Assembly: GCA_903823865.1 (NCBI GenBank)
Contig: CAIJUJ010000027.1
Span: 12,065 to 76,064, forward strand
DNA length: 64,000 bases
Source: an uncultured bacterium
GTDB lineage: Bacteria; Patescibacteriota; Minisyncoccia; Phycocordibacterales; GWA1-40-21
Direction of reading: 5' to 3'
Below the pieces are notes generated by a model that worked only from the letters and a program-made list of their open reading frames with translations, searched no databases and was not told the origin of the DNA. The translations under genes were made by a program, and so were the position numbers. Every line of letters begins with the position of its first letter. The stretch's first letter is position 1. Of this stretch, positions 2,546-55,649 are shown piece after piece.

Positions 2546-3653
2546 TTTTAATTATTTCGTGAGCTATCAAATCAGAGGCGTCTGTTTTTATAAAACTTTT
2601 TGCTCCATCACTCATTTTTTGTGATATTTTTTTATCATCAATTATCCTAAATATTTCAGAAAGTAAAATGTTCGGAGAAAGATTTGACTCTTCAATGACT
2701 ACTGCACCACCTGAACGTGCATAATTATAAGCATTCTGACGTTGATGATTACCATTTGTCTCAGTAATAGGAATAATGATACTAGGAATACCCCACGTTG
2801 CTATTTCAAAAATAGCCGAACCAGCACGAGATATAATAAGATTTGATGCACCAGCAGCCATACCCATATTCAAATTATCTAAATAATCAAAAGCTCTATA
2901 TCTAGTTTTAAATTGGTTACCTGTCAAAATTACATCAGCAGTTGCTGTAACTTCCTGAATGTTATCTTTACCTGTCTGGTGCAATACGTAATATTTTTCT
3001 ACAAGATTATTTAATATACTCAATATCTTTTCATTGATTATTTTTGCGCCAAGAGACCCACCCAAAATAAGTATTACCGGAATATTTTCATCAAGTTTTA
3101 GATATTGTTTTGCACTATCTCTCGGTGGTATCATCTTAACACTTTTTCTAACCGGATTACTTGTAACAGCAACTTTCTTCTCATCAAAAAATTTTGATGC
3201 TTCTGGATAAGAAACCGCGATCCTCTTTGCAAATTTTCCTGCCCAAATGTTTGTTCTTCCAGGAACACTATCTGACTCATGAATAACTACAGGTATTCTC
3301 AATAATTTTGCTGCAACCAAGACAGGAAAGCTCGAGTAAGCTCCTTTACTAAATATCACATCTGGATAAATATTAAAAACTTTAAAAATTGCCCCAATAA
3401 TTCCAAAAAATGTTTTAAATAAATCAAAAAAATTTAATAAAGAAAAATACGTTCTCACTTTACCAGCTGAAATATTTATGTATTCAATATTATTTTCAAG
3501 CAACATATCTGCATCGTGTGGTGAATCAGACATATAATAAAGCTGAACCGGTAGGAGTTTCCCTTCTTTGACTATTTGATTAATTTTTTCTGCAACTGCG
3601 ATAAGTGGGTAAAAATGTCCGCCTGTTCCACCACCAGTTAATAATATTTTCAT
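2523..3653 (-). CDS. murG: MurG, UDP-GlcNAc:lipid I N-acetylglucosaminyltransferase.
   Basis: N-terminal KILLTGGGTGGHFYPLIAVAE glycine-rich MurG signature. Sits inside the mraY-ftsW-murG synteny. Confidence 0.9.
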   Translation of the reverse strand: MKILLTGGGTGGHFYPLIAVAEKINQIVKEGKLLPVQLYYMSDSPHDADMLLENNIEYINISAGKVRTYFSLLNFFDLFKTFFGIIGAIFKVFNIYPDVIFSKGAYSSFPVLVAAKLLRIPVVIHESDSVPGRTNIWAGKFAKRIAVSYPEASKFFDEKKVAVTSNPVRKSVKMIPPRDSAKQYLKLDENIPVILILGGSLGAKIINEKILSILNNLVEKYYVLHQTGKDNIQEVTATADVILTGNQFKTRYRAFDYLDNLNMGMAAGASNLIISRAGSAIFEIATWGIPSIIIPITETNGNHQRQNAYNYARSGGAVVIEESNLSPNILLSEIFRIIDDKKISQKMSDGAKSFIKTDASDLIAHEIIKIGLQHEK

Positions 3654-3661
3654 AATAAATT

Positions 3662-4777
3662 TTATACTTTAAATGCTCTACTAAACTTTGATACGTTCAA
3701 AACAATTCCCATTTCAAGCAAGACCAAAAGCATTGCTGTCCCTCCTTGGCTAAAAAATGCAAGCGGTAAACCTGAAAAGGGTATTATACCAAGAACTGAA
3801 GCCATATTTGTAAACGACTGCAGTACAGTAAGTATAACAATTCCAACTACTAAAAGTCCACCAAAAATATCAGGAGACCTGATTGCGATTCTAAAACCAC
3901 GAAAACAAAAAAATAAGAAAATGACTACAATCGCAACGCAGGCAACAAAACCGCCTTCCTCTGCAAGAACTGCAAAAATTGTATCACTTATGGATTCAGG
4001 CAAGAATTTGTACTTTTGTACACTCTGACCAAGACCTTTCCCGAAAACTTGTCCTGAACCAACAGCGATTAATGATTGTTGAACTTGATAACCAGAAGTC
4101 TGTGAATTGTCTCCTGGGTTTATAAAAGTTTCAATTCTTGACATAACATATGGTCTAGTAAACGCAAGAAATGCAATTATCGCGACCCCAAGTGCACCAA
4201 GAACTAAAACATATCTAAATTTTCCACCAGCTACAAGAAACATTGTGGTGCAAGTAGCAGCAATAATTAGAAATGAGTCAGTGTCTGGTTGGCTTAATAA
4301 AATTAACCCGGAAATCGCAATAAGAATTAAAAGTGGAATAAAACCAAATTTTATTGTAGAAACTTTTTCCTTAACTGAAGACAACCAAGCAGACCAATAT
4401 ATAATAAAACCAATATTTAAAATGGTTACTGGCTGAAAAGAAAAACCAAAAATTGAAATCCATCTTTTTGCAAACGTATTAAGATTTGTTCCTACATGCG
4501 GAACAAAAACTAATAATGTCAAAATAATTGACGCAGCAAAAATTGCTAATGAATATTTTTTGTAAATTTTATAATCAATTTTTGAAAACACAAAACAAGC
4601 CAATAAACCAAAAACTATTCCAAAAAAAAGTTGCTTTAATACGACCGATGTAAATTGGATACTATCTTTTGCCAAAATTCCCATTGACGCCGATATAAAA
4701 ATAATAAAACCAAAAATCAAAAGAGCAATTACAATACCTAGAAAAACTTTATCAATATTTTTTTTAGTTCCTGTCAT
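3662..4777 (-). CDS. ftsW: FtsW/RodA (SEDS family) peptidoglycan glycosyltransferase.
   Basis: Polytopic membrane protein, 371 aa, between mraY and murG as in dcw clusters. Confidence 0.8.
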   Translation of the reverse strand: MTGTKKNIDKVFLGIVIALLIFGFIIFISASMGILAKDSIQFTSVVLKQLFFGIVFGLLACFVFSKIDYKIYKKYSLAIFAASIILTLLVFVPHVGTNLNTFAKRWISIFGFSFQPVTILNIGFIIYWSAWLSSVKEKVSTIKFGFIPLLILIAISGLILLSQPDTDSFLIIAATCTTMFLVAGGKFRYVLVLGALGVAIIAFLAFTRPYVMSRIETFINPGDNSQTSGYQVQQSLIAVGSGQVFGKGLGQSVQKYKFLPESISDTIFAVLAEEGGFVACVAIVVIFLFFCFRGFRIAIRSPDIFGGLLVVGIVILTVLQSFTNMASVLGIIPFSGLPLAFFSQGGTAMLLVLLEMGIVLNVSKFSRAFKV

Positions 4778-12953: not shown

Positions 12954-14033
12954 TTACAGTCCTTCCCCCCTCAATTCCTCGAAATCTTTCTTCGCCTGCT
13001 TTGAAAGTCGGCTAGGTATTTTGATGTTTAATTTGACTAGTAAATCCCCTCGTCTATCGCCACTTATAGGGATTCCTTTGCCTCTAATACGCAATATTTG
13101 GCCAAATTCAGCCCCTGCAGGAACCGACAGCTCTATATCACCATCCAGAGTTTTAAGGCTATATTTAGCCCCTAAAACAGCATCTGTCAATTTTATATTT
13201 AATTCTGTTATAAGATTTTTTCCTTCTTTTTTAAACAAATGGTCTTTTCTTACACGAATTTTAATATACAAATCTCCAGAGCTTCCACCTTTCACAGATT
13301 CACCCGCACCAGTTAGTCTCACTGTTTCTCCGTCGTTTATATCAGCAGGAATACTTACAGAAAATGATTCTTCTTTTTTTGATATACCAAGACCTGAACA
13401 ACTAGAACATTTATGTTTTGGAATTTGTCCCAAACCTTCACAGACTTCGCAAATTTTTTCTGTAACTATCGGACCAAAAAATGATCTTTTTGTTTCTCGG
13501 ATTTTTCCTTGGCCTCCACAAGAATTACATGTTTGCATAGATGAACTTCCTTCAGCACCTGTTCCATTACAAACTTTACATTTTGAATTTTTTGTAAGTC
13601 TGATAGTTTTTTCAGCTCCAAAAACAGATTCTGAAAAATTGAGTTCTAAATCCACAGAAATATCTCTTCCCCTTTTTTGTTTTTTTCTAGAAGTTCTTCC
13701 GCCACCAAAAAAATCTCCAAATATATCTCCCAAGTCAAAATCAACATTTTGTCCACCAGAAAATCCTGAAAAATCAAATCCTTCAAAACCACCTTGACCT
13801 TGGTATTGTCCGCCACCAAAACCTGCGGGTCCTGCTGAACCGTAAGTGTCGTATTGGGATCTTTTTGAATCATCGGAAAGTACCGAGTAAGCTTCACTTA
13901 CTTCTTTAAATTTTTCAGCGTTTCCGCCTTTATCTGGGTGATGTTCGTGCGCAAGTTTTCTGAAGGCTTTTTTAATATCTTCTTTGCTAGCGCCCTTGTC
14001 CACCCCTAAGGTTTTATAGTAATCTTTACTCAT
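12954..14033 (-). CDS. dnaJ: Chaperone DnaJ.
   Basis: J domain with HPD (YYKTLGV...HHPDK), G/F-rich region and four CxxCxGxG zinc-finger repeats. Confidence 0.9.
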
Positions 14034-14048
14034 ATATTTGTTTTGCTT

Positions 14049-14093
14049 GTCCCGTAGCTAACTTTTTCCTGCAAAAAAGTTACGGTACTGGGA
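14049..14093 (+). repeat. 45-nt hairpin repeat, copy 1. Copy 2 is at 53485-53529 in inverted orientation.
   Basis: gtcccgtagctaactttttcctgcaaaaaagttacggtactggga matches the element at the uvrB stop codon at 41 of 45 positions. One stem pair co-varies between copies (g-c versus t-a). Confidence 0.6.
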
Positions 14094-14132
14094 TAATAAT
14101 CTTTGGACATTTATTTTTGGAGTTGGCTCCTC

Positions 14133-14169
14133 AAGGTCGAACCTTTTTAAATTCTCAAGGTTCGACCTT
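14133..14169. promoter_or_regulatory. 13-bp inverted repeat aaggtcgaacctt-N11-aaggttcgacctt upstream of dnaJ. Candidate operator or RNA hairpin.
   Basis: Seen directly. Matches neither CIRCE nor HAIR consensus. Confidence 0.3.
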
Positions 14170-14202
14170 TTCCCGCCAACGAATTTACTTTTTATCTCCT
14201 GT

Positions 14203-14297
14203 CTCCTTATACTCCGCGTCTTTTTCACCCTGTTAAATTTGAATTCTATTTAACAGGGTAAATTGTCATCTTACTTTTTCTCTTTATACTCCGCGTC
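14203..14297. repeat. 18-nt direct repeat (ctccttatactccgcgtc / ctctttatactccgcgtc) flanking a perfect 12-bp-arm palindrome (14226-14260) at the dnaK 3' end. It duplicates the last dnaK codons.
   Basis: The copy inside dnaK encodes DAEYKEKK-stop. The displaced copy would encode DAEYKETGDKK-stop. The palindrome is accctgttaaat...atttaacagggt. Confidence 0.6.
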
Positions 14298-16169
14298 CTT
14301 AATATTATCGCCCTCTCCCTTTTTATCACTGCCTTCAGCACCTGCAGTTTGTCCAGGAGCTTCTTTTTGTGTTTTTTGCATAGCTTCACCGATTTTTTGC
14401 ATTTCAGTTGAAAGTGCATCTGTCTTTGTTTTTATTAATGCTGAATCTGTACCTGAAGTTGCTGTTTTTAAATCAGCAATTTTATCTTCAACACCTTTTA
14501 TTATATCTGCTGGTATTTTATCTTTATTATCTTTTATTGCTTGTTCTGCAGTGTAGATTATTTGTTCGGCAATATTTTTTGCTTCAACACTTTCTTTTTT
14601 CTTTTTGTCTTCTTCTGCATTAAGCTCAGCTTCTTTTTTCATTCTTTCAATATCTTCTTTTTTCAAACCAGAAGAAGCTTCAATTCTGATTGATTGTTCT
14701 TTATTTGTTGTTTTATCTTTTGCTTTTACATTCAATATTCCGTTTGCATCAATATCAAATGTGACTTCAACTTGTGGCATTCCTCTTCTTGCTGGTGGTA
14801 TTCCATCCAATATAAATTTACCCAAACTCTTGTTATCGCTTGCCATTGGTCTTTCTCCCTGAACGATGTGAATTTCTACAGAAGTTTGATTGTCTGCTGC
14901 GGTAGAAAATACCTGACTTCTTGATGTAGGAATTGTTGTATTTTTTTCTACAAGATGTGTTGCTACTCCTCCCATAGTTTCAATTCCAAGTGCTAGTGGA
15001 ATAACATCGAGCAAAAGAACATCTTTGACATCTCCACGCAAAATTCCTCCTTGAACTGCAGCACCTAGTGCAACAACTTCATCTGGGTTGACTGAAAGAT
15101 TTGGTTCTTTTCCGAACAAAGCTTTTACAGCGGCAACTATTGCAGGCATTCTTGTTTGTCCTCCAACCATAATAACTTCATTAAGATCACCTATTTTAAA
15201 TGGTGAAGCTTCTATCGCTCTCTTCGAAATCATTATTGATCTATCAATAAATTCTTTTGTAAGATTTTCAAGATTTGCTCTTGTGAATTTAATAAGCAGG
15301 TGTTTTGGTCCGGAAGCATCTGAAGTAACGAAAGGAATATTTATTTCTGTTTCAAGTGCAGTTGAAAGCTCAATCTTTGCTTTTTCTGCTGCTTCATCAA
15401 GTCTTTGAAGTGATAGTGAATCTTTTCTCAAATCAATTCCGTTTTCTTTCATGAATTGATCTGCCATAAAATCCACAATCTTTTTATCAATATCGCGTCC
15501 ACCAAGATGTGAGTCTCCATCGGTTGAGCGAACTTCTACGACAGAATCACCAATCTCAAGAATTGAAATATCAAATGTTCCTCCACCAAAGTCGTACACT
15601 GCGATTTTTTCATTTTTGTTTTTGTTGAGACCGTATGCAAGTGCTGCTGCTGTTGGCTCATTTATAATTCTCAAAACATTTAATCCGGCAATTTGCCCGG
15701 CATCTTTTGTTGCCTGTCTTTGTGAATCGTTGAAATATGCTGGTACTGTAATAACTGCGTCAGTAATTTTTTCACCGAGTCTTGCTTCAGCATCATTTTT
15801 CATTTTTTGAAGAATCATTGCTGATACTTCTTCTGGACGATAATTCTTTCCGCCCATTGCTATTTCAACTCCATTATTTGTAGATTTTGAAATATCAAAC
15901 GAGACAGAAGCTTTATCTTTCTGTACTCCGGCATCATCATATTGATGACCCATAAATCTTTTTACTTGAAAAACTGTATTCTTTGGGTTTGTAACAGCCT
16001 GTCTTCTTGCCAATAAACCAACAAGCTTTTCACCTGTTTTTGTCATGGCAACAATAGATGGGGTTGTTCTTGCACCTTCAGCGTTTTCTATGATTTTGGG
16101 AGCATTTCCCTCCATCACAGCCATCGCTGAGAATGTTGTTCCTAAGTCTATTCCTAATATTTTACTCAT
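14271..16169 (-). CDS. dnaK: Chaperone DnaK (Hsp70).
   Basis: [26 protein letters not shown] and the rest of the Hsp70 signatures. 632 aa. Confidence 0.95.
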
Positions 16170-16249: not shown

Positions 16250-16319
16250 TGTCATTCCCGCGAAGGCGGGAATCTAGATTTCATTCTAATACTGGATTCC
16301 CGCCTTCGCTGGAATGACA
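16250..16319. repeat. 70-nt palindromic hairpin element, copy 1 (24-25-bp arms).
   Basis: tgtcattcccgcgaaggcgggaatc ...loop... gattcccgccttcgctggaatgaca. Confidence 0.7.
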
Positions 16320-16667: not shown

Positions 16668-16741
16668 TGTCATTCCCGCGCAGGCGGGAATCTAGTGTTG
16701 AATTGAATTAATACTGAATTCCCGCCTGCGCGGGAATGACA
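16668..16741. repeat. 74-nt palindromic hairpin element, copy 2 (perfect 25-bp arms).
   Basis: tgtcattcccgcgcaggcgggaatc ...loop... gaattcccgcctgcgcgggaatgaca. Same family as 16250-16319, with related loops (tag...atactg). Confidence 0.7.
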
Positions 16742-16747
16742 CACAAC

Positions 16748-17350
16748 TTACTTTTTGAACTCAGCAACCACAACTTGTGCTGGCTTCATAACTCTTCCAT
16801 TTAAAATATAACCTTTCTTCTTAACTTCTGTAATCATCCCGTCTTTTTTTTCATCATCAGTCACAACATGCTCTACCGCAATGTGAAATTTAGGGTCAAA
16901 TTTTTCATTAAGCGGGCTCATTGTTTTAAAATCATTCTCATCAAGGATTTTTAAAAGCTGTGTATGAATATATTCAACACCAACTCTCCAATTTTTATCA
17001 ACTTTCTCCCAAGCTTCTTTATTTGAAAATGCCATTTCAAAACTATCTAGCACCTGTGTGATTTCTTCAAGCAAATTTTCGTTTGCATATTTTACAATTT
17101 CGACTTTTTCATTTTCAACTCTTTTTTTGTAGTTTATAAGGTCAGCTCTTTCTCTCTGCCAGCCATTCATATACTCTTGTTTTTCTTTTTCAAGAGTTTT
17201 GATTTTTTCTTTGAGTTTTTTGACCAAATTTTCAGGAGCTTCAACTTCTTCATCAACTATTACATCATCAGCCATCTTTTTTGATGTTTTTTTTGACTCT
17301 TCTTCGTATACCAAATCATCATTGTTGTTGTTTGTTGTATTTTTGTTCAT
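16748..17350 (-). CDS. grpE: Nucleotide exchange factor GrpE.
   Basis: Coiled-coil N-terminus and GrpE core (MNGWQRERADLINYKKRVENEK...). Confidence 0.85.
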   Translation of the reverse strand: MNKNTTNNNNDDLVYEEESKKTSKKMADDVIVDEEVEAPENLVKKLKEKIKTLEKEKQEYMNGWQRERADLINYKKRVENEKVEIVKYANENLLEEITQVLDSFEMAFSNKEAWEKVDKNWRVGVEYIHTQLLKILDENDFKTMSPLNEKFDPKFHIAVEHVVTDDEKKDGMITEVKKKGYILNGRVMKPAQVVVAEFKK

Positions 17351-27282: not shown

Positions 27283-28152
27283 TTATTTTGTAAAACTTCT
27301 TCTACAGTGTTCACACAAAGCTTCTACTTCGTCTTTTATAGATTTAATTTTTTTATCATCAAACTTCACCTCTTTTAATAAATTATCATCAAGAAGGCTT
27401 TTTGAGAGAATTATGCCCCTTAGAAGAAACAGGCTTTTTTCTGCCATTGATAAAGAGGTAAGTGCAGTTATTGGTATGAGCTCATATTTCTCTATCATGT
27501 TATGTAGATTAAAATTGTATGGATAATTCCAGCCAATAAATTTGAGTAATGGTTGGCACTGACCATATTGAATCGCTGTCGTACTAAATTTTGTATTTGT
27601 AATTATCCAACCTTCGGTTAATTTTCTACTTTCTCCACCAAAAACATAGTCTTTACCAAAAATATCATCATAGCGAGCCTTCACGTAAAGCACGATTTTT
27701 AAATCAGATTTTAAATTAAAATCTGTATGAAATTTTGCCTCTGTCATTATTAAATCTTTGTCTTTCCACGCAACGACATCAATTTCATGTGGTACGCACT
27801 TACCCTGAACAACCTGGTCAGTAATTGTTGAATAACCCATTGCCTTAAATATTTCCGCCACAAATTTTTCAAATGGAAAACCTGTAGGACCAAGCATGGC
27901 TACTGCCTTTTTTAAAGAATATCTGACAGCAATTGACTTGTGTTTTTTTCGTAATATAGAAAAAGCCATTCTGTAAATCTCTTGTGTAGTAATAAGTGAT
28001 CTATTTTTGGCTTCAGCACTGACTTCAGAGACAACTTCTGCAATCAACTCGTCTGATGCATCAATTTTTTTAAGAGAACCTTCCAATTTTTTATAATCAA
28101 AAAGTTCTTTTTCTCCGTTGGCTTTTGTTACGTAGAATTCGTTCATATACAT
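27283..28152 (-). CDS. ATP-cone domain fused to an Mrr-like PD-(D/E)xK restriction-endonuclease domain.
   Basis: N-terminal ATP-cone pattern (VTKANGEKELFDYKKLEGSLKKIDASDELIAEV...). It is followed by FEKFVAEIFKAMGY...HEIDVVAWKD...TEAKFH, an Mrr-type D...EAK motif. Confidence 0.6.
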   Translation of the reverse strand: MYMNEFYVTKANGEKELFDYKKLEGSLKKIDASDELIAEVVSEVSAEAKNRSLITTQEIYRMAFSILRKKHKSIAVRYSLKKAVAMLGPTGFPFEKFVAEIFKAMGYSTITDQVVQGKCVPHEIDVVAWKDKDLIMTEAKFHTDFNLKSDLKIVLYVKARYDDIFGKDYVFGGESRKLTEGWIITNTKFSTTAIQYGQCQPLLKFIGWNYPYNFNLHNMIEKYELIPITALTSLSMAEKSLFLLRGIILSKSLLDDNLLKEVKFDDKKIKSIKDEVEALCEHCRRSFTK

Positions 28153-31090: not shown

Positions 31091-34000
31091 TTATGATATC
31101 TTTTTCTTCAATATTTTTGAAACGTCACCCCTGTATTTCTTTAATCCATTAATTAGATTCTTTGCGTCAATAATTTTTATCTGTCTTGGACCAACAATTT
31201 CATATTTATTTATACCCAACCAGCCAAGAGCACTCTGGAATACTTGTTGGTGCCTATATGATTTATTTGAGGACCTAGAATAAAAATCTAAAACTAATTT
31301 ATCAGCACCGCTTACCCATGTCATAGCTTTTAATGTTCTATTAATTATAATCTCTATATCGGCAACGAGTTTTTTTACTACCTCTGGATCATCATAATCA
31401 ATTTCCTTATTATTTTCTGCAAAATTTGTTGTTCTGAGCTCATCTAAAGGGCCAAATTTATCCCACTGCTCCACTGGTGAAAGAGACCGTTTTATTGCTT
31501 CTTCTGCGCGGCGAGCAGATGTAATTAGCCTAGAAACTACCGCTCCAGCAAAACCAATTGAACGTTTATCTTTAGCACCCCGTCTCGCCGCCTTAATTGC
31601 CCTGCCTAAGTCAACATCTTCGCCCACTCCAATTTTTGAATAGCCATTTAGGGCCGCATAAATACTAGATTGAAAAGCAAAATTTGCACCAGATGACGCA
31701 ATTGTACTTTCGTCCCCACGTCTTAATATAACATCTACATATTGAAAGAATCTGGTACCAATGTGCACTAACGGATTTCTAGCATATGCCTCCAAACCCC
31801 AGTCTAGTTGACCCATATATGCATCAGTGTCAGGATTTTTTTCAAACTTTCTAATAAAATTGTCTATATATTCTGTCGCTATGCCTTCATTGTCAGCATC
31901 ATTACTTACTATTGCAAGTTTTGGAGCATCTTTTCCACGTAAAATATGTCTCTCTAAAACCGCGTCTGTGAGATACTTTCTCATAGTGCCAATTTTAACA
32001 TCTTTAATTGGAAATACTTTGTTCATAACTCTAATGTGTAGTTCTGGATGATCTTTTTTGAACCTTTGAATTTCTTTTGCGGTGTCATCTGGTAATACTT
32101 TTTTGCCGTTATAATCTGTATCCGGTTGGTTTACAAACAAAACGATTTCAAATTCATCTTTCTTAGCGGTCTGATTTAAATAATTTTCAAGAGTCTTATA
32201 TATATTTTTACCCTCCTGGTGGCCGGCAACGGGAACACATACTGAGAGTCTACATTTTGAATCCATTGGACCAGCTTCTTTTGTTAGCTCATCGATTATT
32301 TTTAAATCTTCAGGAGTTTGTCTAGACAAATAATCTTTAATTTCTTCCTTTTCATTAAGTTCGGCGTCTGGATTTTCCTTTAAAGCTTCGGACATGCGAC
32401 CTAAATAATTCTCCCTGTTAGCATCATTAAATCCATGATAGGGATAATCTAATTCCTCATGAGTTATTGGATTTCTCAATTGTTCTAGAGGTCCTCTGCC
32501 AAAGATAGGAATAGACAATGGAAAATCTACAATAGGAGCCACACTTTCTATTGATTGATTACCAAGTTCGGTGGCGATGATATTTACCACACTATTTCCA
32601 TCGGAAGCAGTACCAATATCTTGAGCAACCTCCATAAACTTTCCAGTAAATTGAAGTTGTCCATCTACAACTCTAAAAAGAGTTTTTCCAATAAAACTAT
32701 TTGGGTCAATTAGAACATGTCCATCGGTACCAATTGGTAATTCAGCCACACTATGCTGTGTACCAGCAGAAAGTGAAAAAAGCATTTTGAGATGACCGCC
32801 CACCATTAGGTCTTTTACTTTTGCAATTGCTCCGGCGTGAAATGAACCACTATTTGTCATATGTGATATATCGATATCATAAGAGTGACCGTTATCCATT
32901 AGGCCAGTATTATTAATTCCACCATACTGAATACCAAGTTCGTTAAGGTCGTGGACTTGAGTATTATTGTCATAAAACATTTCTCTGTGAATAGTGTGAA
33001 ATTCTGAAGAATTATTTGGAATTATTTGATGAGCAACTTCTTCAGTATGCTCCCCGATTATTTGTGTTCCAGCTGCAACGTGCTCATGCAAATTATTTGG
33101 ACCAAGATGATTTCCAAACCATTGTCTTATTCCCTCAAGTGCTGTCACGTGGCCTGCCCCCTTATTTATTCCAATAGCATGTTCGATCAAACCCTGTTGG
33201 TTTGCATTAAAGAATGACGATACTTCTTGAAATAAACCACCAATAACAAGTCCTGTCGTTACACCTTTCGTAACCGCACCTGCTATTTTTTTTATTTTTA
33301 ATTTTTTAAATATACGGTCCTTGTCATCTATACCACCGTCCCCGTCATACAAATTTCTATTCTGCAAATTCATTACTGATGCATATAATTCATCAAAAGT
33401 TTGATTGCCCGGTAAAGTCATGACTCCACTCTCAACTATATTCCTTAATTTTACTTTTGCCTCAGCACGAATAACATCAAGGTTAAGGCGTTCTTGTTCA
33501 ACTGATTTATAATCTGAGTATGAAATAAGATCAATTTTTTCTTTGTCTGATAATTGTATTCGTGACTCAGCTTCAGAAAGAGCGTCTACTGCAGCAAAAT
33601 AATCTTCTGGAGACTCTATTTTGCTTGATAATTGTTTAATAGAATCACATAATGATTTTGATGAAACTGTTTTATATATTGCACCTTCTAATTCAACTCG
33701 ACGCTTCATATCTTGTGTCATCTCCTTACCCTTAGCTCTTTCTCTGGCGTGTTGTTTTCTTTCTTCTGTTATTCTCAAACTTTCTTTTGCACCAGCAACA
33801 GCTCCAGTTAATGCAGCTGAACCAAGACCAAATGTAACTGGGGCTAATACTTTATTAGCTCCAAATCTAGAAAGTTTAGCAACAGCTGAATATGCGAGTG
33901 CAACACCGACGGCTACCGTTGTCTCATTTACAAATCTACCGATTCCTGTGGAATGCATTTTATCAATTATCTTATCTACAGTATTCATCTTTGCTTCGGA

Positions 34001-34750
34001 TCTTACACCGGCTTTCGCTTTACCAACAATAATTTCGACTTCTTGATCTATTTCATCAATATCAGCGTGGTGTTCATATGCCAGTTTTGCCTCCTTTGCA
34101 ATCTGAAATAAGTTATCTGTATAACGAACTGTATTTTTTAGTTCTTTTCCGCTTAAACCAAGTGTGATAGAAAGAATTTTATTTCTTTCATCACTAAAAA
34201 TTTTATCATCAATTTTACCTTCAGCATAAGAGCGAATTAGACTACGAACGGAAGAGTTTAATTGTGAGTTCTCTGCTTCGCTTGAATCTAAAATTTCTCT
34301 TTCTTCACCAGCTTCAGTGTGTATAGTTTCGTCGTACTCAGAAATAAACCTGTCTACAATTGCCCCCATCGCTTGATCATGTGCTGTTTTATCTGTGTTA
34401 TTTTCTCCTATATAAATATTTCCTGAATTTTTTATTTCGTCTTTGGCTTTATAGTATTCCTTTTGTCTATACATCTCACGGGCAATATTACCCTTCCAAA
34501 TATTATTTTTGGTATATTCCCATACAGCAGATGCTTTCTCAGACATTTTTAAATGAGAAAAATCTTTAAATTTCTCACTAAGTTTTTTATTCGTTTCTGT
34601 TTTAGATGTTGTTAATCTTTCCTCAGCAATATCACGTGCTTGAGACTCAACAATGTCACCACTGTCAACAATAACAATTTTTCTCTTTTTTGTTTTTTTA
34701 ACTTCCTGTTCCTTTATCGGTCCTGAGTTATTTAATGATTCTGATGTCAT
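31091..34750 (-). CDS. Giant (1219-aa) multidomain protein: charged/coiled N-terminal region, central hydrophobic segments, C-terminal GT-A-fold (family-2-like) glycosyltransferase-like domain.
   Basis: C-terminal LSVCVPVAGHQEG (GT2-like first strand) and LAIVSNDADNEG (DxD). Central Gly/Ala-rich hydrophobic stretch (VAVGVALAYSAVA...VTFGLGSAALTGAVAGA). No other assignable domains. Confidence 0.55.
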   Translation of the reverse strand: MTSESLNNSGPIKEQEVKKTKKRKIVIVDSGDIVESQARDIAEERLTTSKTETNKKLSEKFKDFSHLKMSEKASAVWEYTKNNIWKGNIAREMYRQKEYYKAKDEIKNSGNIYIGENNTDKTAHDQAMGAIVDRFISEYDETIHTEAGEEREILDSSEAENSQLNSSVRSLIRSYAEGKIDDKIFSDERNKILSITLGLSGKELKNTVRYTDNLFQIAKEAKLAYEHHADIDEIDQEVEIIVGKAKAGVRSEAKMNTVDKIIDKMHSTGIGRFVNETTVAVGVALAYSAVAKLSRFGANKVLAPVTFGLGSAALTGAVAGAKESLRITEERKQHARERAKGKEMTQDMKRRVELEGAIYKTVSSKSLCDSIKQLSSKIESPEDYFAAVDALSEAESRIQLSDKEKIDLISYSDYKSVEQERLNLDVIRAEAKVKLRNIVESGVMTLPGNQTFDELYASVMNLQNRNLYDGDGGIDDKDRIFKKLKIKKIAGAVTKGVTTGLVIGGLFQEVSSFFNANQQGLIEHAIGINKGAGHVTALEGIRQWFGNHLGPNNLHEHVAAGTQIIGEHTEEVAHQIIPNNSSEFHTIHREMFYDNNTQVHDLNELGIQYGGINNTGLMDNGHSYDIDISHMTNSGSFHAGAIAKVKDLMVGGHLKMLFSLSAGTQHSVAELPIGTDGHVLIDPNSFIGKTLFRVVDGQLQFTGKFMEVAQDIGTASDGNSVVNIIATELGNQSIESVAPIVDFPLSIPIFGRGPLEQLRNPITHEELDYPYHGFNDANRENYLGRMSEALKENPDAELNEKEEIKDYLSRQTPEDLKIIDELTKEAGPMDSKCRLSVCVPVAGHQEGKNIYKTLENYLNQTAKKDEFEIVLFVNQPDTDYNGKKVLPDDTAKEIQRFKKDHPELHIRVMNKVFPIKDVKIGTMRKYLTDAVLERHILRGKDAPKLAIVSNDADNEGIATEYIDNFIRKFEKNPDTDAYMGQLDWGLEAYARNPLVHIGTRFFQYVDVILRRGDESTIASSGANFAFQSSIYAALNGYSKIGVGEDVDLGRAIKAARRGAKDKRSIGFAGAVVSRLITSARRAEEAIKRSLSPVEQWDKFGPLDELRTTNFAENNKEIDYDDPEVVKKLVADIEIIINRTLKAMTWVSGADKLVLDFYSRSSNKSYRHQQVFQSALGWLGINKYEIVGPRQIKIIDAKNLINGLKKYRGDVSKILKKKIS

Positions 34751-41615: not shown

Positions 41616-41684
41616 ATAAAAATTATAACACTATATTAAATAGAGGCCAAATATCATCATAAAACCAGATATTTTTTACGTTTG

Positions 41685-41697
41685 TGGACCGCACCGG
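41685..41697 (-). repeat. Displaced copy of the tRNA-Ala(GGC) 3' end (gtggaccgcaccgg), about 115 nt downstream of the intact tRNA.
   Basis: Exact 13-14-nt GC-rich direct repeat of 41814-41826. The intervening segment carries a hairpin (gacaaaagcaaagca...tgctttttcgtc). Confidence 0.55.
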
Positions 41698-41813
41698 ACA
41701 TCTCCACCTACCGTGGCGGGTATCTTTCCATCTCACTTTGTTCGATACGAAAAGATCTTTCAATCCCGGGACAAAAGCAAAGCAGTTTGCTTTTTCGTCC
41801 CACTACTCCGTAG

Positions 41814-41886
41814 TGGACCGCACCGGGATCGAACCGGTCGCCTCATCCATGCCATGGATGCGCTCTACCAAATGAGCTAGCGGCCC
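41814..41886 (-). tRNA. tRNA-Ala (anticodon GGC).
   Basis: Acceptor GGGCCGC/GCGGTCC with G3:U70, anticodon loop ATGGCAT, T-arm ACCGG-TTCGATC-CCGGT. Confidence 0.85.
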
Positions 41887-46130: not shown

Positions 46131-47396
46131 TTATATTGTAAAATTTCCATCTCTTAATTTTTTATGATATTTAATAGCAAATCTGTGTGCCTCATTATTT
46201 GCAAGCAAAATATCATTTTTGTATTTATCAATTATGTTTCCTATACCTTGAATAATTTTTGGTCTATGTTTTTCATCCTTTGTAACTGCGATGATGGCAA
46301 TTTTTAGACATTTTTCTTTTATTATTTTTTCAGCAATATTTTTCTGCGCAACTGAACCGTCTACAACAATAATCTCTGGGAACTTCCATTCTGCGTGGTT
46401 GAGTCTTCTTGTTAATATCTCTGCAAGTCCTGCAGTATCATTCCGAACGCTATTATTTATTTTAAATTTTCTATATTCGTTTTTATTTGGTATACCATTT
46501 TCAACTACAGTCATCACGCCAACAGTATTTGTTCCATTAATATGTGCTACATCATATGCTTCAATTCTAAAAATATTTGCTAATTGCTGTTCATTTTTTT
46601 CTGATTTTAACAGAGCAATGTCTTGAATGTGATTTAATGCGAAGATTGTATGTTTAATTTGTTCAGCTTTTTCAAATTCTTGCTTTTTTATAACAACCTT
46701 CATTTCTTTCTCTAAACTCTTCAAAATACTGGTCTTTTTACCTTCAAAAAATAGTTTGATATTTCTGATGTTTTTTGCATAATCTTTTTTTGCTTCTATA
46801 CCAGAAATTTCTGGTGCTAAACCAATCTCTTTGTAAAATTTATAGCCAGTATTTTCTCTTGAATATTGGTCAAGAAATGGAAATATTTTGCGAACGATTT
46901 TTAGCGCTTCTTTTAGCTGGCCCCCATTTGTAAACGGTCCATATATATTTGATATTCTCAAATTCTTAAGAATTTGAGAATATGATTCTTTCTGTAAATT
47001 TTTTCCGCGTTCTATCAAAATTCTTGGGAACTCTTCTTTCGTAATAACAACATAATTATAACTTCTATCGTCTTTTTCTTTTGTATTATATTTTGGCTGA
47101 TGTTTTTTTATTAAATTTGATTCAAGTATCAAAGCTTCGAGAACCGAGTCGGTTTTAATAAAATCAATATTATCAGCCTGAAATACCATATCAACAATAA
47201 GCGGGCCACGAGTAGCAATTAAATCATTTGAAAAATAACTTTTTACTCTATCTTTTAATAAAGTTGCTTTTCCTATATACATAATACCCTTACCTTTTTT
47301 AAATAAGTATACTCCAGGTAAATCTGGTAATTTCGTTTTTTTCAGGTATTGACTATCCATATTTATTATGATACCATAAAAATTAGAGAAATCCAA
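46131..47396 (-). CDS. uvrC: Excinuclease ABC subunit C, short form lacking the C-terminal HhH (421 aa).
   Basis: GIY-YIG N-terminus (LPDLPGVYLFKKGKGIMYIGKATLLKDRVKSYF) and endonuclease-domain region (IIVVDGSVAQKNIA). Confidence 0.75.
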   Translation of the reverse strand: MDFSNFYGIIINMDSQYLKKTKLPDLPGVYLFKKGKGIMYIGKATLLKDRVKSYFSNDLIATRGPLIVDMVFQADNIDFIKTDSVLEALILESNLIKKHQPKYNTKEKDDRSYNYVVITKEEFPRILIERGKNLQKESYSQILKNLRISNIYGPFTNGGQLKEALKIVRKIFPFLDQYSRENTGYKFYKEIGLAPEISGIEAKKDYAKNIRNIKLFFEGKKTSILKSLEKEMKVVIKKQEFEKAEQIKHTIFALNHIQDIALLKSEKNEQQLANIFRIEAYDVAHINGTNTVGVMTVVENGIPNKNEYRKFKINNSVRNDTAGLAEILTRRLNHAEWKFPEIIVVDGSVAQKNIAEKIIKEKCLKIAIIAVTKDEKHRPKIIQGIGNIIDKYKNDILLANNEAHRFAIKYHKKLRDGNFTI

Positions 47397-47431
47397 TTAA
47401 TTTTCAAGTATAAAGCACTGGGAGGTGCAAA

Positions 47432-47701
47432 ATGAACTTATTAAAAAAACATGTTTCACCAATCTTCCCTTTTATAAAAGGGGAAGATGATTGTAAGAGT
47501 TTTTTGTGTAATGGGAAACTTTGCGACAAAGAATCCATCAAACTTGACAGGATGACTTCGAAAGGTACGCCTTTGAGTCATATATTTGAAACTCAAATCG
47601 CCATGCCTTGCAACAAATGCGGGAGGTTACACTGGTGGGAGGATGGGGAACAAGCGGTAGACGGGATGAACGGCAAAAAATTGTTTCGCAAAGAGCGGTA
47701 A
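47432..47701 (+). CDS. Small Cys-containing protein (89 aa), possible zinc ribbon.
   Basis: Strong SD (GGAGG-N6-ATG). CxxxxC and CNKC pairs. Followed by terminator cccccccgaacc-aaaag-ttcggggg plus T-run (47725-47762). Confidence 0.45.
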   Translation: MNLLKKHVSPIFPFIKGEDDCKSFLCNGKLCDKESIKLDRMTSKGTPLSHIFETQIAMPCNKCGRLHWWEDGEQAVDGMNGKKLFRKER

Positions 47702-47875
47702 ATTAATATGGAGATAAAATATAACCCCCCCCCGAACCAAAAGTTCGGGGGTAGTTTTTATTTACTCTTCTTTAAAGCTCTTTTTAAATATTTTCCTGTA
47801 TAAGATTTTTCGTTCATGGCTACCCCAGTAGTAGAGCCTCGAACAAGGCTCGGCTCACTACGGGGCGAGAAGTGG

Positions 47876-50575
47876 TTAATCCCTACCTGATTTATTCAAA
47901 GCGCGCTTTAAGTATTTCCCTGTGTATGACTTTTCATTTCTAGATACATCTTCAGGTGTTCCTTTCGCTATGACTTCCCCACCTTTATCTCCTCCTTCTG
48001 GGCCAATGTCTATTACATAATCAGAACTTTTTATTAAATCCATATTATGTTCAATAACAATAACGGTATTTCCAAGACCAACGAGTTTTTGTAAAATTTC
48101 TATTAGTTTTTTTACATCTTCATAGTGAAGTCCGATTGTTGGCTCATCAAGAAAATAAATAGTTTTGTGAAGTCCTGGTCTATAAAGTTCTGAAGCGATT
48201 TTTACTCTTTGTGCTTCTCCACCGGAAAGTGTTGTAGCAGATTGCCCAAGTTTTAAATATGAAAGTCCAACATCATTGAGACATTTTATTCTGTCATAAA
48301 CCGCAGGCAAATCAACAAAGAAATTCATCGCTTCTTCCACCGTCATTTCAAGTATTTGGTGAATATTTTTTCCTTTGTATTTTACTTCCAAAGTTTCCTT
48401 GGTAAATCTTTTTCCATTACAAACATCGCAAGGTACATAAATTGTAGGTAAAAAATGCATTTCAACTTGTATGGTTCCATTTCCTTCGCAGTTTTCGCAT
48501 CTTCCACCTTTTACGTTAAATGAAAATCTATTTGCCGCCCAACCTCTTTCTTTTGCCAAAGTTGTAAGCGCAAACATATCACGAACAAAAGACCACGCAC
48601 CTGTGTAAGTGGCGGGATTTGAACGAGGTGTTCTACCAATTGGAGATTGATCTATCATAATGGTTCTGCCAACATATTCGGAACCAGAAAATGAAGCGCA
48701 ATTGTGCGTTTCGTTTGAGCGAAGTTTTCTTTCAAGACGTGCCTGCAAATTTTTATACAAAATTTCGTAAACAAAAGATGATTTGCCAGAACCAGAAACT
48801 CCAGTGATTGTGACAAGTTTACCAAGTGGAACATCAACACTCATATTTTTTATGTTGAATATTTTTCCGCCTCTAATTTTTAATTTCCCTTTATCTTGAT
48901 CTCGTCTTTTTTTAGGAATATCTACTTTTAAATCTCCACGAAGATAATCAAGTGTGATAGAACCCGACTCATTTTTCTTTGCGGTAAGAAGCTCATCTAA
49001 ATATCCGGAAACTACAACTTCTCCTCCGTGAACCCCAGCTCCCGGTCCAATATCAACAATATAATCTGACGCATACATTGTGTCTTCATCGTGCTCTACC
49101 ACCAAAATAGTATTTCCTAAATCTCTAAGATGTATAAGTGTTTTTATGAGTTTATCATTGTCTCGTGGATGGAGTCCAATTGTTGGTTCATCAAGAACAT
49201 AAAGTGCACCCACAAGACCTGAGCCAAGCTGTGATGCAAGACGAATTCTTTGTGCTTCTCCCCCCGAAAGAGTATTTGCGCGTCTATCAAGTGAAAGATA
49301 TTCAATTCCAACATTGCTCATAAATTGTAGCCGTGAATCAATTTCTTTTATAATTAATTTTGAAATTTCTATTTCGCTTTCGGTAAGTTTTAAGCTTTCA
49401 AGAAATTCTTTTGATTCAGTAATTGTTTTTGCAGTATATTCAACGATATTTATTCCGCCAATAAGCACATGGAGTGCTTCTTCTCTCAATCTTTTTCCAA
49501 GACACACTTCGCATGGTTCATCGGAAAAGAAATCTTTTGTACCAAGACCGTGACATGTTTCGCACGCTCCATAAGGTGAATTAAAAGAAAATAATCTTGG
49601 TTCGATTTCTGGATATGAATATCCATCATAAGGACACATAAATTTTACGGAAATCATTTTTATTTCCACAGGAGTTTCTATTTTCAATAGCCCTTTTGAT
49701 TCTTCAATGGCTTTTTCTACCGCATCAGAAAGTCGCTCCTTTATACCAGATTTTTTCTCCTTAAATTCGCTAATATAAAATTCATCAACAAGCACATCAA
49801 TATCGTGCTTTTTATTTTTTGAAAGTATTATTTGATTTCTCAACTTTTTTAATTCTCCATCTATTTTTACTTGCTCATATCCTTTTTCTAGCAAATCATA
49901 AAGCAACTGATAATATTCTCCTTTTCTGCCTACAACCACAGGAGAGAAAATTTTAATTTTGTCTGAACTAACTTCCACACCTAAAATTTCCTTTGATTTT
50001 TGTGAAGATTTTAAATGAGTGACTGTATGAATAATTGTTTCTAAAATTTCTTCTTTTGAAAGTTTTTTGATTTCTCTTCCACAAGTCAAACAATGTGGTC
50101 GTCCAATTCTCGCATATAAAATTCTAAGATAATCATAAATTTCTGTTATGGTTGCAACAGTTGAACGAGGATTATTTGAACGTGATTTTTGATCAATTGC
50201 AATCGCTGGAGAAAGCCCGCTGATTTCATCAACGTCCGGTTTCTGCATTTGGTGCAAAAATTGTCTTGCATATGAAGAAAGAGATTCAATATATCTTCTT
50301 TGACCTTCAGCAAAAATAGTATCAAATGCAAAAGACGACTTCCCGCTTCCGGAAATTCCTGTAACGGCAATCATTTTATTTCGTGGCATCTCAACATTAA
50401 TATTCTTCAAATTGTGAGTTCTAGCCCCTTTTACAATAATTTTGCCTGCCCCGTTTGAATTTTCACTAAATTTTGTTTGTGTCATAAAATTAATATTTAT
50501 TAAATACTTATTTATTTTAAAATTAAGATTATCCCTGAAAATTCTTTTCGGGGCCTTCCTTATGTGATTCTGCAC
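47876..50575 (-). CDS. uvrA: Excinuclease ABC subunit A. Start is probably the internal Met near 50485.
   Basis: Two ABC modules (GISGSGKSS..., GVSGSGKSS...) and zinc-finger Cys clusters. Confidence 0.95.
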
Positions 50576-53384: not shown

Positions 53385-53516
53385 TTATATCATATTTTTC
53401 TTTTTTTCTGCTATCTTTTTGTCTTTAGATTCTATTTTTTCTTTTAAAATTTTAATTTCATCACGAAGTATTGCAGCACTTTCGTCCCAGTACCATAACT
53501 TTGTTTCAGGACAAAG
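53385..53516 (-). pseudogene. In-frame remnant after the uvrB stop, encoding a second copy of the UvrB C-terminal helix.
   Basis: Reading past the uvrB TAA in frame gives ...WYWDESAAILRDEIKILKEKIESKDKKIAEKK-stop. The real uvrB end is ...FESAAILRDEIMILKKRIEDKIKPKETKRSKSRS. There is no start codon. The copies are diverged at DNA level but similar at protein level. Confidence 0.5.
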
Positions 53517-53529
53517 TTAGCTACGGGAC
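53485..53529 (-). repeat. 45-nt hairpin repeat, copy 2. It overlaps and supplies the uvrB stop codon. Copy 1 is at 14049-14093.
   Basis: Minus-strand sequence gtcccgtagctaactttgtcctgaaacaaagttatggtactggga matches copy 1 at 41 of 45 positions. Confidence 0.6.
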
Positions 53530-55586: not shown

Positions 55587-55649
55587 ACTAAATTAAAATA
55601 ACATAGAAATGATTCTTTGGCACTAAATTTAAACAATGAATAAAAAATA

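Follow-up and report, generated by a model that had tools for sequence, protein, structure and literature searches.

In a 64-kb stretch of DNA, referred to here as the window, from an uncultivated small-genome bacterium of the Patescibacteria (Paceibacterota), five genes have a second copy of one terminus lying beyond a short palindromic insert: the 3' ends of dnaK, uvrB, uvrA and tRNA-Ala(GGC), and the 5' start of dnaJ. At uvrB, uvrA and dnaJ the palindrome belongs to one hairpin family. Its 45-nt member is a low-copy, polar, structured element of Paceibacterota and forms the constant end of a non-coding cassette of ~80-140 nt, and the rest of the cassette is a foreign terminus copy of a highly conserved gene, in which the protein is kept and the DNA has diverged. 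After integration the order is gene body, incoming terminus, hairpin, junction and displaced dead native terminus, and the gene stays intact because the cassette brings either a stop codon of its own or its own spacer and start codon. The genes overwritten in this way are dnaJ, dnaK, uvrA, uvrB and probably one tRNA gene. The explanation that we favor, tentatively and at somewhat less than even confidence, is one of non-autonomous, terminus-replacing cassettes. Homology would anchor them on the gene side, and a precise joint would be made at the hairpin foot, probably by means of an enzyme acting in trans. A preliminary description of this DNA had picked out the dnaK, uvrB and tRNA-Ala loci, all of which are present, and had missed the uvrA end and the dnaJ start. 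The incoming units measure 78 nt (dnaJ), 77 nt (dnaK), 124 nt (uvrA), ~138 nt (uvrB) and 128 nt (tRNA), and none of these 77-138-nt inserts holds an open reading frame (ORF).

Empty sites and the native gene ends

Insertion is polymorphic among the relatives, whose loci (L numbers) were obtained through protein look-ups. L162 has empty sites at dnaK and dnaJ, and L082, L171 and L177 have them at uvrB and/or uvrA, which bears out the earlier view of these elements as insertions. The window itself has a G+C content of ~32% and carries most of its genes on the minus strand, among them uvrB (53517-55586). The working UvrB protein ends in ..KSRS*, with its stop codon inside the 45-nt hairpin at 53485-53529 (minus strand; 51.2 bits with the covariance model R1), and a second UvrB C-terminus, DESAAILRDEIKILKEKIESKDKKIAEKKKNMI*, follows in frame downstream, both as first described. 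On the same strand the incoming working end, ESAAILRDEIMILKKRIEDKIKPKETKRSKSRS-stop, spans 53517-53619 and the displaced native end, ESAAILRDEIKILKEKIESKDKKIAEKKKNMI-stop, spans 53385-53484. In L082, whose UvrB is 88% identical, uvrB and uvrA are both free of hairpins. The uvrB gene bodies are ~80-84% identical right up to the junction, and L082 matches the displaced copy at 45/54 nt but the working copy at 33/54 nt. We take the displaced copy to be native because its identity to L082 is at the gene-body level, and since it stands no farther from L082 than the gene body does, the incoming termini are read as orthologous and foreign. The working end is equally far from the displaced copy and from L082. 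A donor search with the 42-aa UvrB tail gave nothing useful.

The uvrA gene (47876-50575, minus strand) shows the same architecture over 47758-47944. It was the top case in a displaced-terminus scan of the window, in which 45 residues from either end of each ORF were set against the translation of the flanking DNA; its score was 93, and controls reached at most 47. Along the minus strand the incoming working end (22 residues and stop, 47876-47944) is followed by the conserved 5' extension CCACTTCTCG and the family hairpin CCCCGTAGTGAGCC..CTCTACTACTGGGG (together 47824-47875; 54.3 bits), and then by the displaced native end (21 residues and stop, 47758-47823). The displaced end matches 63/66 nt of the uvrA end of L177, a relative with a UvrA at least 90% identical and an empty uvrA site, and its protein tail equals that of P0141. 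Comparison with the distant L082 had raised the possibility that the uvrA copies are chimeras from a crossover within the repeat; the closer empty site of L177, which shows the displaced copy to be fully native, led us to drop it. At both uvrB and uvrA the foreign tract begins exactly at the start of the displaced copy and not upstream within the homologous anchor, and each of the two units has the same 3 nt at both of its junctions (CGA at uvrB, GTA at uvrA). Beyond the displaced uvrA end a ~360-nt island (47397-47757) extends to uvrC (46131-47396, minus strand). It contains a hairpin that is G/C-rich and terminator-like and, on the opposite strand, a Cys-rich ORF of 89 aa (47432-47701). The island is absent from L171, where uvrC begins 6 nt past the uvrA stop.

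For the dnaK-dnaJ region (grpE 16748-17350, dnaK 14271-16169 and dnaJ 12954-14033, all on the minus strand) the comparison is with L162, which is ~92% identical in DNA over grpE-dnaK-dnaJ. There dnaK ends in DAEYKETGDKK-stop and is followed directly by a hairpin, H2, and then by the dnaJ ATG, with neither the palindrome H1 nor the dnaJ hairpin of the window. The working dnaK of the window ends in DAEYKEKK-stop (14271-14297, with a foreign tract that may reach ~14350). After it, still on the minus strand, come H1 and its short flanks, ACCCTGTTAAAT..ATTTAACAGGGT, as part of the incoming unit (14221-14270), the displaced end, which translates as DAEYKETGDKK-stop (14185-14220), and H2, AAGGTCGAACCTT..AAGGTTCGACCTT (14112-14184; fold z = -6.7), which is native to the intergenic region and lies outside the insertions. 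The layout of L162 identifies the displaced copy as the native end and the working end with H1 as the addition. L163 has the same dnaK tail and downstream H2 and also lacks H1. H2 is conserved after dnaK in the Taylorbacteria locus L004 as well, where it occurs three times within 11.5 kb (at 2609, 5431 and 9491) and so represents another repeated hairpin family. The direct repeat (14203-14220 and 14280-14297), the perfect 12-bp-arm palindrome between its copies and the displaced coding end are present as first described, the repeat being identical at 17/18 positions. H1 folds as a 15-bp stem (z = -5.9) and has no match in any fetched locus beyond same-strain contigs.

At dnaJ the displaced start, ATG TCC AAA GAT TAT TAT (MSKDYY; 14093-14110, minus strand), abuts the 3' foot of the first copy of the 45-nt hairpin (14049-14093, plus strand; 53.8 bits) and holds its native position just after H2, as in L162. 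A 15-nt spacer, AAGCAAAACAAATAT (14034-14048, minus strand), which like the hairpin is absent from L162, leads to the working start, ATG AGT AAA GAT TAC TAT (14016-14033, minus strand); the working start matches the empty site of L162 at 17/18 positions. The spacer is no copy of the local upstream sequence, and spacers homologous to it follow the hairpin in L015 and L033. We had considered TATTACGAA, found after the hairpin in these two loci, as old dnaJ codons 5-7, but it is more likely to be cassette spacer (compare the sequence upstream of dnaJ in L163). The old dnaJ start of the window makes a short upstream ORF that terminates inside the hairpin. DnaJ is only 66% identical to that of the best species-representative relative. 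Assembly chimeras or artefacts are unlikely, because identical DnaJ, UvrB and UvrA sequences were seen on at least 30 independent contigs from many samples.

Codon differences between the two copies

Across six loci, 46 codons differ between the working and displaced copies. The differences are synonymous in 36 codons and non-synonymous in 10, where random change would be expected to give a synonymous share of 18% (p = 6e-19), and they include switches such as Ser AGT/TCC, Ser TCA/AGT and Arg CGC/AGA. Because the copies differ almost only at synonymous sites, they are not target-site duplications, and the flanks that had been taken for duplications are better described as diverged orthologous sequence. 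The incoming termini, to judge from these codons, are orthologous sequence from other lineages and not local copies, and in every testable case the displaced piece proves to be the resident terminus and the incoming DNA the working piece plus hairpin. The proposal that a replacement gene end is brought in was right: the displaced copy matches the native end of the relatives.

One alternative is an ordinary insertion of a miniature inverted-repeat transposable element (MITE) or a REP element with target-site duplication, or else a conserved regulatory or terminator structure combined with local tandem duplication. Small palindromes between direct repeats would suit this explanation, and so would hairpins in transcribed spacers and the short upstream ORF left by the old dnaJ start. 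Both the empty sites and the codon test nevertheless contradict it, and we consider it highly improbable. Where a transposon of this kind would leave identical duplications of fixed length, the repeats here range from 14 to ~100 nt, are only 61-70% identical at uvrB and uvrA, and pair a foreign sequence with one that is native in the relatives. The spacer before the new dnaJ ATG was not copied from the local upstream region. A conserved untranslated structure or terminator is hard to reconcile with the absence of the units from the close relatives L162, L082, L171 and L177, and the hairpins have no U-tract after them and no Rfam family near its gathering score at any locus. The earlier label of MITE-like elements keeps its sense for units that are small, non-coding and palindromic, but not for their low copy number, their polarity and the missing fixed target-site duplication.

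The hairpin family and its polarity

The hairpin at 14049-14093 (plus strand) matches that at 53485-53529 (minus strand) at 41/45 positions, a match that no shuffle produced, and one mismatch pair is compensatory (G-C versus T-A), as previously noted. The inserts do not form the single family that was first supposed. Of the window's hairpins, those at uvrB, dnaJ and uvrA alone are related, and H1 and the tRNA-Ala hairpin are unrelated to them in sequence and unique in all the data. The family consensus is 5' C-Y-Y-G-Y-CCC-GTAG-(variable inner stem-loop)-CTAC-N-GGG-R(T) 3', with a 13-bp stem and two bulged T positions; 94% of cells are paired, five pairs covary, and 0/500 shuffles scored as high. 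The outer stem is invariant, and the inner part measures between 3 and ~40 nt. We also tried to explain the two 45-nt copies as the bounds of a 39-kb inverted-repeat element or inversion, but sensible genes result neither from an inversion nor from a transposon model, and the idea was rejected because both displaced fragments lie inside the span and come from different genes.

A search of ~1.7 Mb of Paceibacterota loci DNA with R1 gave 11 strong members and a few weak or long-palindrome variants, and within these loci the family is low-copy, with 3 members in the 64-kb window. All the strong members lie between a working and a displaced terminus except L170, an IMG/VR contig that was the one true member in scans of viral contigs and whose context is uninformative. 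Outside the window, members sit at the dnaJ start in L015 and L033, the uvrB start in L084 and L091, the typA/bipA start in L105 and the uvrB end in L171 and L172. Of the hairpins singled out in the preliminary description, the 45-nt family thus recurs at junctions in relatives but the dnaK palindrome does not, and the idea that 3' ends only are targeted gives way, as the 5' starts of dnaJ, uvrB and typA have been hit as well. Long near-perfect palindromic variants, CCCCGTAGTAGATTTT...AAAATTCACTACGGGG (72-84 nt), occur upstream of dnaK in L015 (3752-3830) and upstream of uvrC in L095 (14292-14375), with GTCAA/TCAAG flanks and without an obvious displaced terminus, and could represent a parental or autonomous-end version of the hairpin family.

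The hairpin is polar. Every junction has the CCCGTAG side towards the working piece, be it a gene end or a gene start, and the GGGR foot against the displaced piece; the orientation is identical at ~10 junctions, for which the chance is ~2^-9. The junction falls at the 3' foot (0-1 nt), the base after the GGGR foot is T at 9/11 junctions, and no tetranucleotide is common to the variable ends. As the two DNA strands fold about equally well, thermodynamic stability does not account for the polarity. The 10-nt extension CCACTTCTCG is found 5' of the hairpin in the uvrA 3' cassette of the window and in the uvrB 5' cassette of L178, and because it is common to 3'-end and 5'-end cassettes it is part of the element itself, not of the gene next to it. 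Lineages whose DnaJ is only ~50% identical have the outer stem, the bulges and this extension in common. That these parts are kept while the inner stem is free argues for a protein, as do the strict polarity, for which no thermodynamic asymmetry accounts, and the family's restriction to junctions.

Recurrence and polymorphism among strains

The same termini have been hit repeatedly. In a cluster of UvrB proteins at least 90% identical the tails are hypervariable, with three configurations and one truncated. L172 and the window share the 45-nt hairpin, the junction and the displaced piece at uvrB but differ in the incoming piece. In L171 the incoming piece has its first 47 nt in common with that of the window, followed by a tail of its own and a different family hairpin. 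L178 retains only the 5' half of the uvrB-end hairpin and has had a separate event at the uvrB start, and L091 holds three stacked layers of displaced UvrB N-termini, with a hairpin in each. The breakpoint of three uvrB 5' events is one and the same, after ..GGNGAC (PAGD). The tail and half-hairpin of the window and L178 are identical at 56/58 positions, the uvrB bodies being ~82% identical, and uvrB among strains is a mosaic of identical and diverged segments, the mark of recombination. This sharing and this mosaic mean that the modules are exchanged horizontally in a freely recombining population.

Two further features were seen at uvrB. In L178 (2270-2480) the 45-nt hairpin is interrupted in its loop and fused to unrelated DNA, a long structured stretch with a terminator-like hairpin at its end, so the loop is a rearrangement breakpoint. 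In the window at 55610-55640 (minus strand), ~45 nt upstream of the uvrB start, the sequence TTG TTT AAA TTT AGT GCC AAA GAA resembles uvrB codons 5-12 (TTA TTT AAA ATT AAA GCC GAA TAT) and may be a decayed older displaced uvrB start without a hairpin.

The main rival to our reading is a serious one even though we judge it unlikely: the junctions could be a passive by-product of natural transformation. Imported diverged single strands would pair with a conserved gene, a 3' hairpin would block exonuclease, and microhomology would allow illegitimate joining, either as homology-facilitated illegitimate recombination (HFIR) or in the manner of SPDIR (short-patch double illegitimate recombination) at the replication fork, with no dedicated element or enzyme. 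The hits are limited to the highly conserved dnaK, dnaJ, uvrA, uvrB, typA and a tRNA, the junctions have 3-nt repeats, and uvrB is a recombination mosaic among strains, all of which agree with such a process. So do the properties of SPDIR patches, which are single-stranded and 3 to ~100 bp long (bioRxiv 10.1101/2023.11.22.568220).

Several observations weigh against dedicated cassettes, and the first two also speak for the passive process. The same architecture occurs with hairpins unrelated to the family (H1, the tRNA unit, L119 and L131), so a generic process that needs no enzyme may suffice. In L171 the uvrB junction lies 27 nt deeper into the native end, which means that native sequence was lost and the event was a replacement with overlap; at dnaK, too, native sequence was possibly lost, making it an overlap replacement in place of a clean insertion. 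The displaced dnaJ copy has a TCC codon unlike L162, and some junctions are therefore chimeric. A Pfam scan of 30 ORFs of the window found no integrase, transposase, HUH protein or reverse transcriptase, nor any other candidate enzyme for the cassettes, and all of these ORFs look housekeeping. The list of target genes is also biased, as the loci examined were picked around dnaJ and uvrB.

Despite this, a passive process does not readily predict the strict polarity of the hairpin at ~10 junctions when both strands fold equally, nor the keeping of the outer stem, bulges and 10-nt 5' extension across lineages with the inner stem free to vary. The strong family members sit at junctions, L170 excepted, and at uvrB and uvrA the start of the foreign tract coincides exactly with that of the displaced copy. 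A single clade of at least 90% identity has seen several independent events, yet in the model organism SPDIR is extremely rare (bioRxiv 10.1101/2023.11.22.568220). On balance we prefer terminus-replacing cassettes, with the dnaK (H1) and tRNA-Ala units as what may be generic versions of the same process. One more unrelated hairpin type was seen in L119 (1000-1150), where a 37-nt unit, GAGGCTCGCCTAGTAAGGCGGCCCGCTTTGC, is repeated three times in tandem and separates a working end, ..IFKELLKK-stop, from a displaced ..HIFKELLKK-stop.

The tRNA-Ala unit and integrative elements

The 3' terminal 14 nt of tRNA-Ala(GGC) (41813-41826; the gene is at 41813-41886, minus strand) are repeated exactly at 41684-41697 on the same strand, 114 nt apart, with a chance expectation of ~1e-6. 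The recurrence had been reported before and is exact, although its coordinates were one base off. The hairpin-containing insert between the tRNA end and the displaced copy (41698-41812, minus strand) matches only the same-strain contig L173 among the fetched loci, and no empty site was obtained, the retrievable contigs being of the same strain or without the tRNA. The 14-nt exact repeat is the sole evidence in this case, and the unit could be a classical att remnant.

Prophages, genomic islands and other integrative elements insert in the 3' ends of tRNA and protein genes and carry a replacement end, following attP/attB biology. The resemblance to the loci described here is clear: a substitute terminus keeps the target intact, the native terminus is displaced beyond the insert, and the target genes are conserved. 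It can therefore be asked whether the junctions are attL/attR remnants of integrase-type elements whose bodies have since been deleted, as the preliminary description had suggested. Bringing along a substitute gene end is what characterises such elements, and the tRNA 3' end with its 14-nt exact repeat is a classical integrase target. Yet we think this explanation very improbable. The cassettes are ~100 times smaller than integrative elements, and all five events would need reduction to 77-138 nt; they are non-coding, their constant part is a single polar hairpin, no integrase or other recombinase was found among the window ORFs scanned, and both gene ends are targeted, 5' starts included. The junctions share ~3 nt, with 14 nt at the tRNA, so the hairpin-family junctions have no long identical core. 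Strains at least 90% identical differ in hairpins, junction positions and incoming pieces at one gene end, and L091 has stacked tandem layers. Decayed integrative elements fit poorly with events that are recurrent and polymorphic among near-identical strains.

Homing and the dnaK-dnaJ spacer

Free-standing GIY-YIG and HNH endonucleases are responsible for intron-less homing, in which conserved genes are targeted, spread is driven by repair and recombination, and flanks are co-converted. In L166/L167 (GCA_041643235.1; DnaJ 83% identical) an 86-aa GIY-YIG ORF lies between dnaK and dnaJ at 3646-4000, bracketed by inverted repeats GTCATTGCGAGGAGCGCAGCGACGAAGCAA / TTGCTTCGTACCTCGCAATGAC, in the spacer equivalent to 14034-14270 of the window. 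This spacer is a hotspot for several small mobile DNA kinds.

Homing by cleavage and repair would mean that a nuclease encoded elsewhere cuts empty alleles, that repair copies the cassette, and that the diverged terminus gives immunity. The nuclease might be a free-standing homing endonuclease, or it might be guided by RNA, with the hairpin and displaced piece as scaffold and guide. The incoming copy is recoded synonymously, the displaced native piece is always found immediately 3' of the hairpin, a breakpoint is common to several uvrB 5' events, and different lineages are targeted at the same sites. Together with the GIY-YIG mini-gene in the L166/L167 spacer and the conserved targets these features resemble homing, but we regard the explanation as very improbable. 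The cassettes carry no endonuclease gene and no nuclease is linked to them, the hairpin is far smaller than known guide-RNA scaffolds, and a foreign origin explains the synonymous divergence equally well. We also know of no homing-endonuclease insertion with a hairpin and a duplicated terminus. In its most far-reaching form the argument would make the cassette a self-propagating terminus-replacing element, with a recoded rescue copy of the terminus of an essential gene and a hairpin-specific trans nuclease that cuts unoccupied alleles, possibly guided by RNA of the hairpin and displaced piece. That would be a natural bacterial analogue of a 'cleave-and-rescue' or homing gene drive, and we mention it as a long shot.

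Relation to other known systems

PATE, which are non-autonomous IS200/IS605 derivatives, and REP/RAYT elements are grouped with the hairpin elements of IS200/IS605 type, which are single-strand transposons. The cassettes resemble these in the imperfect bulged stem, the constant polarity and the lack of a classical target duplication. IS200/IS605 elements have an imperfect hairpin with extrahelical bases that is recognised on one strand, and a short conserved sequence 5' of its foot (PMC3201880); the short conserved sequence 5' of the cassette hairpin foot is comparable to the guide tetranucleotide of IS608. There are also differences. The cassettes have one hairpin and not distinct left and right ends, their junction is at the hairpin foot and not 10 or 19 nt off (PMC3201880), no target tetranucleotide is constant, the variable end copies the target gene, and copy number is low. 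No TnpA or RAYT gene was found by Pfam among the 30 window ORFs.

A second comparison is with one-ended rolling-circle transposition. IS91/ISCR elements and Helitrons move in this way, with a constant end near a hairpin and a variable end that captures host sequence, and the cassette likewise has one constant end at its hairpin and one variable end with host sequence. It differs from them in that no HUH-Y2 transposase or terminal signatures were seen, and in inserting at a homologous gene and not at a short motif. HFIR, the third comparison, combines a homologous side with a microhomology joint. The cassettes share with HFIR and SPDIR what we take to be short foreign single-stranded DNA, homology on one side with microhomology on the other, and a patch of at most ~100 bp. 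Those processes are rare and unspecific in sequence, whereas the cassettes carry a conserved polar hairpin family and recur at the same gene termini.

Four other candidates were tried and rejected. Translational bypass or in-frame duplication fits the frames of uvrB and dnaJ but not those of uvrA and dnaK. In a diversity-generating retroelement (template and variable repeats) substitutions would be adenine-specific, but here they are of all types, and no reverse transcriptase is present in the scanned ORFs. The RYYYAAC/GTTRRRY ends of an integron attC site are missing, and there is no match to CIRCE or LexA operators.

A possible mechanism

If the hairpins are the ends of dedicated cassettes, their movement might proceed as follows. 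A trans-acting protein would read the bulged outer stem on one strand and fix the exact DNA end at the 3' foot. The cassette strand would take along a variable stretch of the adjoining gene terminus, and after transfer from cell to cell this carried terminus would pair with the homologous resident gene, while the hairpin foot would be joined alongside through ~3 nt of microhomology. The terminus copy would in this way act as a homology arm, so that the insert would come to lie at exactly the homologous position and only very conserved genes would be hit, because the terminus must pair with a resident homologue. Frequent homologous recombination among strains would then spread and reshuffle the cassettes further. 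In this scheme the single-stranded intermediate, the involvement of an enzyme and the route of cell-to-cell transfer are what we infer from the structure of the junctions.

Other features of the window

In the grpE-dnaK gap, GC-rich nested palindromes (TGTCATTCCCGCGAAGGCGGGAATCTAG and its inverted copy) at 16250-16319 and 16668-16741 surround a conserved 99-aa ORF. The palindrome at 16668-16741 is missing from the 92%-identical L162, and the core, GTCATTCCCGCG..CGGGAATCC, is also present in L002, L024, L042 and the Binatia metagenome-assembled genome L072. These palindromes are a separate repeat that is widely shared across phyla. Elsewhere, a 1219-aa ORF at 31091-34750 has no Pfam match, and in a 289-aa protein at 27283-28152 an ATP-cone domain is joined to a restriction endonuclease domain of the Mrr type.

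Implications

Our search of the literature found no description of such elements, and hairpin cassettes that overwrite gene ends seem not to have been described previously; the earlier view of an undescribed family does appear to be correct. For practical work, the N- and C-terminal tails of these marker proteins should be annotated with caution, as on our reading they would be mosaic and foreign in origin. The covariance model R1 could be used as a marker to trace recombination and strain-level gene flow in uncultivated lineages. To our knowledge very few mobile elements are recognised in Patescibacteria. If our reading is true, dnaK, dnaJ, uvrA, uvrB and typA of these bacteria would be repeatedly re-capped by tiny cassettes that move horizontally, which would point to a DNA-processing activity specific for the hairpin and for one strand. 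The cassettes themselves would amount to mobile DNA in compact form, sparing the host by supplying their own copy of the gene end that they destroy.

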